Source: Pseudomonadota bacterium (lineage in GTDB: Bacteria; Pseudomonadota; Gammaproteobacteria; Burkholderiales; JACQAP01). Taken from it: a DNA stretch of 64,000 nucleotides. Location: contig JBBPIT010000005.1 of the NCBI GenBank assembly GCA_038040175.1, forward strand, positions 44,555 to 108,554, read 5' to 3'. A program made the position numbers and the translations under genes. The notes under the pieces are model-generated. The model ran no database searches. It was given only the letters and a program-made list of their open reading frames with translations, and was not told the DNA's origin. Positions 32,292 through 54,727 of the stretch are shown one piece after another (positions within the stretch are counted from its first letter, which is position 1; the number at the start of each line of letters is the position of its first letter).

Positions 32292-32482
32292 CCACAGAGG
32301 ACACAGAGGAAGCCGCCTCACCCCCGCCCTCTCCAGCAAGCTGGAGAGGGCGGGGGTGAGGCGGCTTTGACCGTTTTTTCTCACCCTCTCCGCATCTTGA
32401 CCTTTCCTCCCTCTCCACTTGTGGAGAGGGGCGGGGTGAGGGCAGGGGGAGAGGGACGGGGTGAGGTGGGTGTCCTCTGTGG
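32292..32482. repeat. Nested REP-like palindromic element
   Basis: Outer 13-bp inverted repeat (CCACAGAGGACAC / GTGTCCTCTGTGG). It encloses a perfect 28-bp-arm hairpin (32310-32367) and a 72-bp CCCTCTCC-rich unit (32384-32455). Confidence 0.88.
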
Positions 32483-34530: not shown

Positions 34531-34602
34531 CCCTCTCCGCATCTTGACCTTTCCCCCCTCTCCACTTGTGGAGAGGGGCGGGGTGAGGCCAGGGGGAGAG
34601 GG
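34531..34602. repeat. Second copy of the 72-bp REP-like unit
   Basis: 70 of 72 bases identical to 32384-32455. Confidence 0.9.
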
Positions 34603-36252
34603 TTAGGGAGACGTGGCAGTCGGCAGCTTGTAATCCTTGAAGTCGTCGCGCAGCTTGGTCTTGAGCAGCTTGCCGGTGGCGGTGTGCGGCAACTGGTCCA
34701 CGAACACGACGTCATCAGGGATCCACCATTTCGCCACCTTGCCCTCGAAGAATTTGATCAGTTCCTCGCGGGTCACCTGCGCGTCCTTCTTCTTCACCAC
34801 GATCAGCAGCGGCCGCTCGTCCCACTTCGGATGGCGTATCCCGACCACCGCCGCTTCCGCGACCGCGGGGTGCGCGACCGCGGCGTTCTCCAGATCGATC
34901 GAGCTGATCCACTCGCCGCCGGACTTGATCACGTCCTTGGAGCGGTCGGTGATCTGCATGTAACCGTCGGGGTCGATGGTGGCCACGTCTCCGGTGGGAA
35001 ACCATTCCTTGCCTTTCTCGTCCTTGCGCATCGGGTCGCCGCCCTCGCCCTTGAAGTACCCGTTGCTGATCCACGGGCCGCGCACCAGCAGATTGCCGAA
35101 AGCCTTGCCGTCCCATGGCAGCTCCTTGCCGGCGTCGTCCACGATCTTCAAATCCACCCCGAAAATGGTGCGGCCCTGCTTGCTCTGGATCGCCAGTTTG
35201 CTGTCCTTCGGCAGATCCAGATGCCGCGACTTGAAAGTACTGACGGTGCCGAGCGGGCTCATTTCGGTCATGCCCCAGGCGTGCAGCACCTGAACGCCGT
35301 AGTCTTCCTGGAACGACCGGATCATCGCGGGCGGGCAGGCCGAGCCGCCGATCACGGTCCGGTTCATGGTGCTGAACTTGAGCTTGTTCTGGCCCATGTG
35401 CTGCAGCAGCGCGAGCCATACCGTGGGCACGCCGGCCGAAACAGTGACCCGCTCCGTCTCGAACAGCTCGAAGAGGCTCTTGCCATCGAGCTGGTAACCG
35501 GGCAGCACCATCTTGGTTCCGGCCAGCGCGCAACTGTAGGGCAGGGCCCAGGCGTTGGCATGAAACATGGGCACCACCGGCAGCATCACGTCACGCGACG
35601 AGACGTTGAGCGCATCGGGCAGCGCCGCCGCATAGGCATGGATCACCGTGGAACGGTGCGAGTACAGCACGCCCTTCGGATTGCCGGTCGTGCCCGAGGT
35701 GTAGCACAGCGAAGATGCGGTGCGCTCGTCCAGTTCCGGCCACTCGTAATCGTCCGGCTGCGCATTCACCAGGTCTTCGTAGCACAGCAGATTGGGGATG
35801 CCGGTCTGCGGCATGTGGGCGCGGTCGGTCATGACGATCCAGCCCTTCACGCTCTTGCACATCGGCGCGAGCTTCTCGATCAAAGGCACGAAAGTCAGGT
35901 CGAACAGCACATGGCTGTCTTCGGCATGGTTGACGATGTAGGTGATCTGCTCGGGAAACAGGCGCGGATTGATGGTGTGCATCACCGCACCCATGCCGGA
36001 AATTCCGTAGAAGGCCTCCAGGTGCCGGTAGCCGTTCCAGGCCAGCGTGCCGACGCGGTCGCCTTTTTTTACCCCGAGCGCACCGAGGGCGTTGGCAAGT
36101 TTGCGCGCCCGGCGATGCGCCTCGCGATAATTGTAGCGGTGTATCCCGCCTTCCACCAATCGCGACACGATTTCGGTGTCGCCGTGGTGGCGGTCCGCGT
36201 GCCCGATCAGAGAAGAAATCAGCAGCGGAACATCCATCATCAGGCCTTGCAT
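34603..36252 (-). CDS. Fatty acyl-CoA ligase, 3-(methylthio)propionyl-CoA ligase (DmdB)-like
   Basis: [42 protein letters not shown]. Start at MQGLMMD. Confidence 0.9.
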
Positions 36253-52751: not shown

Positions 52752-52953
52752 AATTTCCTCCAGGTTTTCCTGCTTCGACTCCGGCTGATCTGCCGCATCT
52801 GAAACCACCGTCAGATTACACCTGTCCGTTACGTATTCAAAGGTGGCAAAGGAGCCGCAAAAGTCATGTTTCAGAAGCGTGAAAAAATGACTCGGACACC
52901 CGCCGCGCCGCCGAGGCACGATTGCGCAGCCGTTACGCCGGCGCGCCCTGGTC

Positions 52954-53013
52954 CTACTTGGCGAAATACTCGTTCAGAACCTCGAAGGCCTTGCCGAAGG
53001 TGCCGTTGCCGAC
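52954..53013 (-). pseudogene. Possible 3' remnant of an unidentified gene
   Basis: Strong GC3 codon pattern reading VGNGTFGKAFEVLNEYFAK*, with no convincing 5' part. Confidence 0.4.
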
Positions 53014-53017
53014 CGCA

Positions 53018-53182
53018 TCGATCAAGCCGGGCTATCTTGCCGACATGATCCTGGTGGACGGCAACCCGGTCGCCAACGTGAAGATCCTGCAGGACGCCAC
53101 CAAGCTGCTGGCGATCATGAAGGACGGGCAATTCCACAAGGAGCCGCACACCGCCTCGCAGTCGCAGCGGCAGATCGCGTAA
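53018..53182 (+). pseudogene. C-terminal remnant of a metal-dependent amidohydrolase
   Basis: SIKPGYLADMILVDGNP...IMKDG is the C-terminal signature of the amidohydrolase superfamily; the rest of the gene is absent. Confidence 0.75.
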
Positions 53183-53227
53183 CAGATAAACATAAAGAAA
53201 CAACAATAAACCTTGTAGTGAGGTTCG

Positions 53228-53250
53228 CGCCCGCTTGCGGGCGTTTTTTT
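53228..53250 (+). terminator. Intrinsic terminator
   Basis: CGCCCGC-TT-GCGGGCG-TTTTTTT. Confidence 0.75.
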
Positions 53251-53268
53251 ACCACCTCTCCCGCAGCC

Positions 53269-53562
53269 CTTGTATGTGCAATTATAGGTTTTGAGGACGC
53301 CAGATCGATCAGCCCAGGCCCTGTGCCGCGAGGCACAAGTTCGAGGGAGAGCGTGGATCGGCGAACTCAAGATGTTGGCTTTCGGGCGCGGGAGCCCGAA
53401 CGGTTGTACGGCTGCACGCCGCATTGAATACAAGGAAGGGAGACGCGCCATGGAAGCCAAGTTTGTTGGTATTGATGTCAGTAAAGCGACGTTGGACGTG
53501 GACTGTTTGCCGGTGAGTACACCGCGGCAGTTCAGCAATGATGCGGGCGGGATTGCGGCGGC
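53269..53562 (+). mobile_element. Truncated IS110-family element (left end plus first ~37 codons of recombinase)
   Basis: ATG 53450: MEAKFVGIDVSKATLDV...FSNDAGGI, the N-terminus of the DEDD RuvC-like domain. About 180 nt non-coding left end beginning CTTGTAT. Confidence 0.85.
53285..53440 (+). ncRNA. Putative IS110 bridge RNA
   Basis: Two stem/internal-loop modules. First: outer stem TTGAG..CGCC..GATC / GATC GGCG..CTCAA with inner TGTGCC/GGCACA. Second: contains ACGGTTGT, CGGC/GCCG and ATACAAG, which is complementary to the element end CTTGTAT. Confidence 0.65.
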
Positions 53563-53628
53563 AGTCGACGACGCGGCAGATGGTCCGCCACGTGGACGAC
53601 CATTGCGCCTATACAGTAGTATGACGAG

Positions 53629-54115
<487 letters not shown>

Positions 54116-54227
54116 AGCCCGGAGATGGCTGAAAGGGGCGCAGATAGACCCCATCAAACGCGGATTGTTGTATTTCCGGCGCGCCGTGCTAACCAGTACA
54201 ATGAAATCCTCGCATGGGGGTTAGACG

Positions 54228-54485
54228 ATGAACGACAGGATTTCGCTTTCCAGGGCTTTGATGGACCGCCTTGTGCGGGTGTCACGTCGCACGACGTTGA
54301 AGCCCGAGTCCATCGCTCGCAAGGCGATCGCCGAGCGGGTGGCGCATCTGGAGTGGGAGTCACGCGCGCTTGCGGTTGGTCAGAGGGACCTTGACCAAAG
54401 CCGAACGCTCCAAACCAAAGATCTGAGAACGGCTATTTCGGCTCAGCGTATTGCTCGTGGCAAGAAGGCCCCAAAAGCGGCTTGA
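54228..54485 (+). CDS. CopG/RHH-like antitoxin
   Basis: Small basic protein with pattern L..L...T....S.IARKAI.E....LEW...A...G..D; overlaps a ParE-like start. Confidence 0.55.
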   Translation: MNDRISLSRALMDRLVRVSRRTTLKPESIARKAIAERVAHLEWESRALAVGQRDLDQSRTLQTKDLRTAISAQRIARGKKAPKAA

Positions 54486-54531
54486 GTGGTCCTTTGAGGC
54501 GGCGCGAGACGTCCTTCAGCTCGAAGCGTGA
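54457..54531 (+). pseudogene. Truncated RelE/ParE-type toxin N-terminus
   Basis: GTG start overlapping the antitoxin 3' end: MARRPQKRLEWSFEAARDVLQLEA*. LEWS..A..DL is the ParE start pattern. Confidence 0.5.
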
Positions 54532-54727
54532 GAGAATCCAGATCGTCAAGCCTATGCTTTTTAGCTCGCGAGAACCTTTGCGCGGAGAGTGACGTGTGCA
54601 AAGGTGCCGATTGCTAAGTAAGCGGAAACAACTCCTTTCGCCGATCTCCCGCTCGTGCAGGCCTGTCTGGGGTTTCGTTCACCCTGTTAGACTTTCCCAC
54701 GCGTTTTCCAATAACCCGAGATACAGC

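Follow-up and report, generated by a model that had tools for sequence, protein, structure and literature searches.

The closest described relatives of the element analysed here are IS621 and ISCro4 (IS622), in which the bridge RNA is encoded in the left end (PMC11208160, PMC11208158; PDB 8WT6, 9T56). The bridge RNAs of IS621, ISEc21 and ISPpu10 work when they are supplied in trans (PMC11208160; PMC11187229; 10.64898/2026.03.19.712850). A terminator upstream of the left end of IS621 abolished excision from the linear form, and low-level transcripts are seen from IS621 loci in linear form (PMC13626964). Insertion of IS110 elements into REP-type repeats has long been known (PMC1525189). A consensus has been given for the BoxC/PIT/TMECO repeat, which has 23 copies in E. 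coli K-12 and is called widespread (PMC4666352). Within the literature on orphan or truncated bridge RNAs, ISPpu9/ssr9 was the one relevant result found.

The window is a stretch of 64,000 nucleotides on contig C5 of assembly G000 (3.78 Mb in 129 contigs, 98.9% complete). An earlier note on this DNA described an orphan bridge RNA in front of a dead recombinase gene and proposed that it could act in trans. We find that the element is an ordinary young IS110 relic with a catalogued target. Very probably it is the left end of an IS621-type element whose insertion, at the CT core of a BoxC repeat, was followed by a deletion that took away the recombinase gene and the right end. Its guides still match the target, but it is likely silent and inert.

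Anatomy of the element and its deletion

Nucleotides 53269-53449 are the left end of an IS621-type IS110 element and are 96-98% identical to copies L026, L027 and the full-length L029 (coordinates are collected in Table 1). The region 53200-53700 is single copy within assembly G000. Every motif named in the earlier note lies where it had been placed: the left flank ends at 53268 and is followed by the core CT (53269-70) and TGTAT; CAGCCC is at 53310, CCAGGCCCT at 53314, GAGGGAGAG at 53343, ACGGTTGT at 53400, ATACAAG at 53428 and ATG at 53450; and the inner hairpin is at 53322-27/53332-37. The reading of this end as that of an IS621-type bridge RNA is borne out by near-identical copies at unrelated sites and by guides and structure that match those of relatives.

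When 37 genomes of the genus were searched, this region turned up in four others; one of these, L025, is an unrelated match of 26 bases. Scanning metagenomes with the opening bases of the left end gave five loci. Among 400 genomes of the class, the window's left end was the only one found. Differences from the window number 4/181 in L026, 6/181 in L029, 8/181 in L027 and 3/145 in L022. L029 is complete: its left end is followed by a 312-aa ORF, a right end of 8 nt and another CT. L028 and L030 represent a single, somewhat more distant element (89% at the amino acid level) at two different sites. In these intact copies (L028-L030) both ends lie at the CT core and removal restores the target, and right ends reading ACGGTTG-CT, as the earlier note had expected, are seen. 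The window has the left end and the core; the right end is absent from the window and from the whole assembly in blastn and tblastn searches with L029, and was not found in viral contigs.

The recombinase is dead, as had been claimed. Thirty-seven codons are left, their residues match L026 up to base 53559, where the ORF leaves the intact copies, and from there the frame runs through foreign sequence to 53644. Of the catalytic Asp residues only the first (D9) is left. IS110 recombinases carry a DEDD RuvC-like domain (PF01548) and PF02371 and are about 300-460 aa long; the remnant has no Pfam match and reaches E 0.043 with NF033542. The near-identical intact protein of L029 scores 207.9 bits with NF033542 and has full-length alignments to ISCro4 and IS621 (E 6e-40 and 1e-42).

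Table 1. Features of the element, its surroundings and other IS110 sequences of the assembly (window positions unless a contig is given)
Feature	Position	Strand	Basis or remark
BoxC-type repeat named in the earlier note (32326-32351)	32315..32353	+	Two mismatches to guide-read positions 3-14
Composite BoxC-type repeat	34531..34610	-	Best site has two mismatches
Intrinsic-terminator-like hairpin and T run	53227..53250	+	Prediction; at the orthologous place in 9/9 relative loci (L012-L020)
Left half of BoxC-type repeat	53252..53268	+	Left flank; left target arm 53262-53268
CT core and right donor arm (start of left end)	53269..53275	+	Same start in near-identical copies at unrelated sites
Predicted -10 box AATTAT (53280-85) with TG-n extension	53277..53285	+	17-nt spacing across the circle junction
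Target-binding module (outer stem, internal loop, inner stem-loop)	53291..53370	+	Comparative structure
Left target guide (LTG)	53308..53316	+	55/84 exact against 37.4 permuted; other offsets p 0.22-0.99
Right target guide (RTG) GGGAGAG (53345-51) and handshake CG (53352-53)	53345..53353	+	Follows right flanks
Donor-binding module	53386..53448	+	Comparative structure
Left donor guide (LDG) ACGGTTG(T)	53400..53407	+	Matches right end of intact copies
Right donor guide (RDG) ATACAAG (53428-34) and handshake GA (53435-36)	53428..53436	+	Motif match and comparison of left ends
IS110 recombinase gene, first 110 nt	53450..53559	+	ORF equals intact copies up to 53559
Deletion junction, 12-bp microhomology	53548..53559	+	Common to recombinase gene and upstream region of DUF4160 module
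DUF4160 and DUF2442 gene pair, not part of the IS	53629..54115	+	Joined to the remnant by deletion
IS110-family genes of other subgroups, intact	G000:C118:514-1545, C99:6289-7395
IS110 C-terminal fragment	G000:C21:50349-50706

Up to 53559 the window tracks L026, L027 and L029; from there on it matches the upstream region of the DUF4160-DUF2442 pair. The 12 bases common to both sequences point to a microhomology-mediated deletion, which would have removed the rest of the recombinase gene, the right end and the right repeat half. An assembly chimera, in which an intact element was joined to a neighbouring contig, might look similar, given that this is a metagenome assembly, that the junction is at a short repeat and that two of the four sequencing runs examined (X9 and X13) also have contigs that branch at 53559 and continue into the intact ORF. 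However, single contigs span the whole region both in X1, the possible source, and in X5, a soil run of an independent study, and X9 contains the junction; each of these has its own few differences (the X5 contig has three from the window). The junction is not an assembly artefact, and we regard a chimera as extremely improbable.

The remnant might instead have been kept for a role in cis, for instance as a structured leader or ribosome-binding site affecting the fused DUF4160-DUF2442 pair. The junction is common to strains in at least two other studies (X5 and X9) and the fused frame overlaps the start of DUF4160, which would fit such a role. Against this, relatives have the same gene pair in other contexts, behind unrelated upstream sequences (L007-L010), about 80 nt of the pair's own upstream region are retained, and the strains that share the junction differ at only 3-4 sites per kb, in keeping with recent common descent. 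A role in cis is very improbable. The left end differs from L026 at 4/181 sites and the dead ORF at 1/110; this similar divergence suggests a young relic, with no sign of selection on the RNA. The guide RNA would then look intact because it is young, not because it has been selected.

The surroundings show several further features. Within 53629-54485 the first gene of the pair is weakly like the toxin DhiT (E 0.028) and a later ORF is weakly like a RelB antitoxin (E 0.067), with an apparent broken partner beyond it at 54482-54600. On the other side, at 52922-53182, an amidohydrolase gene is reduced to the 86 codons of its C-terminal part (Pfam E 0.0014), and since relatives match from 53020 on, this side also appears to be a deletion scar. 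The 3' end of the amidohydrolase gene holds an A/C-rich tract (AAAGAAACAACAATAA) and the terminator (53190-53250), which are kept in 9/9 orthologous loci and in Rfam weakly resemble AgvB, the sponge of GcvB (23 bits, cut-off 56); this could be a 3'-derived small RNA.

Guides, fold and target repeat

Guides were mapped with the IS621 numbering of PMC11208158, which the window RNA fits almost base for base; A53302, G53307, A53338, G53343, A53393 and G53398 are the unpaired residues in this mapping. The RDG is the exact complement of 53269-75, GGGAGAG of the RTG is complementary to CT-CTCCC, and positions 3-8 of the LTG match the left flank and the C of the core. The earlier note had offered two left guides. 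We judged the LTG by an anchored test alone, because a position-free best-match scan often picked the false CCAGGCCCT register in C-rich flanks. Seventeen left ends entered the anchored test, 13 of them with a full 7-base left flank, which gave 12 distinct guide-flank pairs including that of the window. The LTG covaries with the real left flanks (p 5e-5, which is the floor of 20,000 permutations over kin that are not independent), in support of the CAGCCC register. The CCAGGCCCT register, at offset +6, gives 42 against 41.1 after permutation (p 0.40) and was rejected. By position, the matches number 3, 1, 6, 11, 10, 12 and 12 of 12, so that the first two bases of the guide appear to be poorly read.

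Both ends were resolved by best-match scans in 23 of the 41 loci examined, the other 18 being partial or unresolved. The LDG equals the left donor arm 7/7 in all 23, across five different arms. For the RTG, 20 loci show a 7/7 match to the right flank and three a 6/7 match, across ten different flanks. The handshake bases CG and GA are present in 17/17 anchored left ends; as in IS621, they complement G at donor position 7 and C at target position 7. LTG and RTG are complementary to the target arms and covary with them, and the same is true of LDG and RDG for the donor arms, with the LDG read in 23 of 41 loci. Assembly G049, which is flagged as unpublished, is the source of one of the 12 LTG pairs (L023) and of two rows of the guide scan (L023 and L056); the structure alignment A1 excludes it and no conclusion rests on it alone. 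The target read-out GCC-CT-CTCCC proposed in the earlier note is backed by the covariation of the LTG and by the RTG, which follows the right flanks.

Folded as a single sequence, the RNA is not significantly stable (z = -1.68, 11/200 shuffles as good); the minimum free energy structure pairs LTG with RTG, and a fold constrained to the bridge form lies 14 kcal/mol above it. An Rfam scan of 52900-53900 found no bridge-RNA family and gave two sub-threshold matches, one of which is merely the terminator. The case for the structure therefore comes from the relatives. When the two-module structure, two stem-loops with internal loops, was laid on 13 aligned left ends, 93.3% of 389 cells were paired compared with 26-42% in slid controls; the structure was drawn on the sequence of the window, which biases the figure in its favour. 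Two-sided changes occur in 10/32 pairs, and 0/500 shuffles reached the covariation score. Two guide-bearing internal loops with covariation to target and donor are thus upheld by the alignment of relatives, not by the single-sequence fold. The outer stem is present but extends over 53291-53306/53356-53370 and not, as had been proposed, to 53310; nucleotides 53307-53316 are linker and LTG. Two bases, C53320 and G53390, were considered as damage to the RNA and dropped: the position facing C53320 is unpaired in most relatives and the same C is found in L034 and L047, and G53390 lengthens the donor-module stem.

All seven near-identical copies (L022, L024 and L026-L030) have the left part of a BoxC-type repeat as their left flank, and the four with a right flank read CT-CTCCC (three) or CT-CTTCC (one). 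These insertion sites confirm insertion into the CCCTCTCCC repeat family. The site in the window retains only the left part of the repeat, in which G53263 deviates from the family and is C in a contig of run X9. There is an uninterrupted repeat at the orthologous place downstream of the terminator in 2/9 relative loci (L012 and L014).

The target repeats fit the reverse complement of the BoxC consensus (PMC4666352), with three CCCTCNCCC-type blocks. By inspection against that consensus they are intergenic and arranged as CCCTCNCCC-N3-CCCTCNCCC-N3-6-GGGNGAGGG; the flanks of L028, L030 and L066 fit this arrangement, as do many of the 57 such palindromes in assembly G000 (about 4 expected), often with mismatches. 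The element inserts in the middle block, and the variable bases of the LTG read the 3-nt linker. Loci in Cupriavidus and other Burkholderiales have the same target. The repeat is therefore not this genome's own, as the earlier note had it, since it fits the BoxC/TMECO consensus known from E. coli K-12.

Judged on guide-read positions 3-14, assembly G000 has two exact sites, neither BoxC-like, and 38 sites with one mismatch, 19 of them BoxC-like. The two exact sites (G000:C12:59597 and C44:25035) lie in a sequence that is duplicated without change and is not typical of BoxC repeats. The repeats at 32326-32351, which reads GCCCTCTCC-A, and at 34531-34610 had been named as the programmed target. 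They are members of the family but not its best sites, with two mismatches each over the 12 guide-read bases.

Three Cupriavidus contigs of 1146-1148 bp (L032, L034 and L035) contain nothing but the element and CC and CTCCC stubs, which is how an element present at several BoxC repeats would look once its copies had collapsed into one contig. The genus of the window also has more distant IS110 elements (L051, L053 and L054, in G011, G003 and G006), whose target is a different, TTCGTG-type repeat (CT-TCGTG or CT-CCGCG) and whose guides follow it.

Transcription and action in trans

By analogy with IS621, an intact element of this clade would excise to a circle, on which TTGACA of the right end and the -10 box of the left end would form a promoter, and the RNA would guide recombination of the donor ACGGTTG-CT-TGTAT with the target (CC)AGCC-CT-CTCCC. 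The junction promoter is predicted for the intact element (TTGACA-17-AATTAT), and A at position 2 and T at position 6 of the -10 box are found in 13/13 aligned left ends. The window lacks the right end and has TCTCCC at the place of the -35 box, so the predicted promoter cannot form there. The predicted terminator ends 18 nt before the CT core, and no promoter was found in the linear context of the window. Weak -35-independent transcription from the TG-n -10 box is possible. RNA runs X15-X20 contain 6-14% of the words of the region, a share that has no bearing on expression.

The earlier note had suggested that the RNA works with a recombinase encoded elsewhere. Assembly G000 has two intact IS110 genes (C118 and C99), 31.6% and 28.1% identical to the cognate recombinase. 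These and the C21 fragment were rejected as partners in trans, at 28-32% identity and with no bridge RNA of the clade alongside; at about 30% identity a recombinase and a bridge RNA would presumably be incompatible. We found no direct test of recombinases accepting non-cognate bridge RNAs in the literature as far as it was available, including 10.1101/2025.05.14.653916. Searches of G000 with L029 (tblastn and blastn) returned only the remnant, the donor end ACACGGTTGCT was not found in the assembly, and the clade covariance model gave no second bridge RNA among the 150 candidates scored out of about 1,200. An element in several copies can be lost from a 129-contig assembly that is 98.9% complete. 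We looked for traces of such a collapsed element, and none of the 258 contig ends of G000 carries an element end, there being only internal matches of 13-15 bp.

A partner missing from the assembly is the form in which the proposal could still hold: the orphan RNA, weakly transcribed from the extended -10 box, would load a cognate or sister recombinase from the same cell and contribute to BoxC insertion in trans. All guides and stems are intact, there is a TG-n extended -10 box, bridge RNAs of IS621, ISEc21 and ISPpu10 function in trans if supplied, and 19 of the 40 genome sites with at most one mismatch are BoxC-like. The communities sampled in X9 and X13 contain intact copies of the cognate element. 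Additionally, sister-clade elements (about 70% identity) use the same donor arm and RTG, and run X1 has one on a separate 1152-bp contig, which matches the window at 53449-53481, with ends like those of L031 and L038. That contig has a depth of 35.6 compared with 19 for the contig of the window, where depth is not copy number, and it may belong to another organism. However, neither a cognate or sister element nor a donor end or further bridge RNA of the clade was found in G000, no element end lies at its contig ends, the -35 box was in the deleted right end, and a terminator lies upstream. Any intact partner would also bring its own RNA of nearly the same specificity, to which the orphan would add little. 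Activity of the remnant RNA in trans is therefore unlikely. The inert relic is the reading that we prefer, and we infer that it neither excises nor guides because there is no -35 box, a terminator upstream, no right end and no cognate enzyme.

A wider possibility is that left ends without a recombinase are a recurring usable module, in which the window copy, transcribed from its extended -10 box, would guide a co-resident sister enzyme in trans and a 145-bp piece in assembly G052 would be a mini-element made by recombinase. This piece (L022:1505-1649, on G052:C445) is a left-end-only element that runs from CT to CT between two intact BoxC halves, and its removal restores the repeat. It ends at an internal CT inside the donor loop, with the right repeat half directly after, lacks the RDG and is single copy, and no other pieces of the element were found in G052, a 91%-complete assembly. 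It may have arisen by deletion at a 3-base microhomology, or else a recombinase may have acted at a non-matching CT (cf. half-match recombination, 10.64898/2026.08.31.748434). Most simply it is another relic, and a usable module is improbable.

Comparison with known systems

In supplementary files 4 and 5 of Durrant 2024, as far as they were available (PMC11208160), the BoxC repeat targeted here, with an identical central arm, is found in entries such as target_seq1795-1799 and 2082, an RNA in file 4 has the guides CCCAGCCCT and GGGAGAG, and donor entries such as donor_seq455-456 and a Cupriavidus-like left end match the donor junction of this clade. File 5 has 165 matches for CCCTCTCCC and 16 for the donor junction. 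The exact TBL strings of the subclade have 0 matches in the searchable text of these supplements, and the particular element of the window may be uncatalogued. The same targets and the donor junction of the clade being already present there, the remnant would not add a natural target specificity, as had been suggested.

As found, the locus carries little weight: it is one more decayed IS110 copy, with target and donor already published. Its intact relatives, with a 312-aa recombinase, an RNA of about 160 nt and a natural 7-nt right-target guide, are a compact set of orthologues for bridge-recombinase screens, and they link an IS110 clade by name to BoxC/TMECO repeats. Free guide RNAs acting in trans in nature would, if true, be a new route for the spread of IS110 specificity; this locus gives no positive evidence for it.

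MITEPpu9/ssr9 of Pseudomonas putida (PMC12288879) is, like the remnant, an sRNA-bearing piece derived from IS110 that has no transposase and lies in REP sequences. In contrast with the remnant, which has one end, one copy and no cognate enzyme or partner that we could find, MITEPpu9 has both ends, forms circles and is present in eight copies beside an active transposase. The remnant is thus not a non-autonomous IS110 derivative of the MITEPpu9 type.

The likeness to IS621 and ISCro4 (PMC11208160, PMC11208158; PDB 8WT6, 9T56) is closer, the remnant being a fragment of an IS621-clade element. The window element shares with them the left-end bridge RNA, the CT core, TGTAT as right donor arm, a pair of internal loops that hold LTG/RTG and LDG/RDG, conserved unpaired A and G residues spaced as in IS621, handshake bases that complement position 7 of the opposite substrate, and insertion into a palindromic repeat; a junction promoter, present in IS621 and ISCro4, is predicted for its intact form. 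Unlike IS621 and ISCro4, the clade of the window has the left donor arm ACGGTTG, a contiguous 7-nt RTG and RDG, a BoxC target, no separate 5' stem-loop, and an 8-nt right end in which the -35 box overlaps the stop codon. The remnant itself differs from them further in that its recombinase and right end are deleted.
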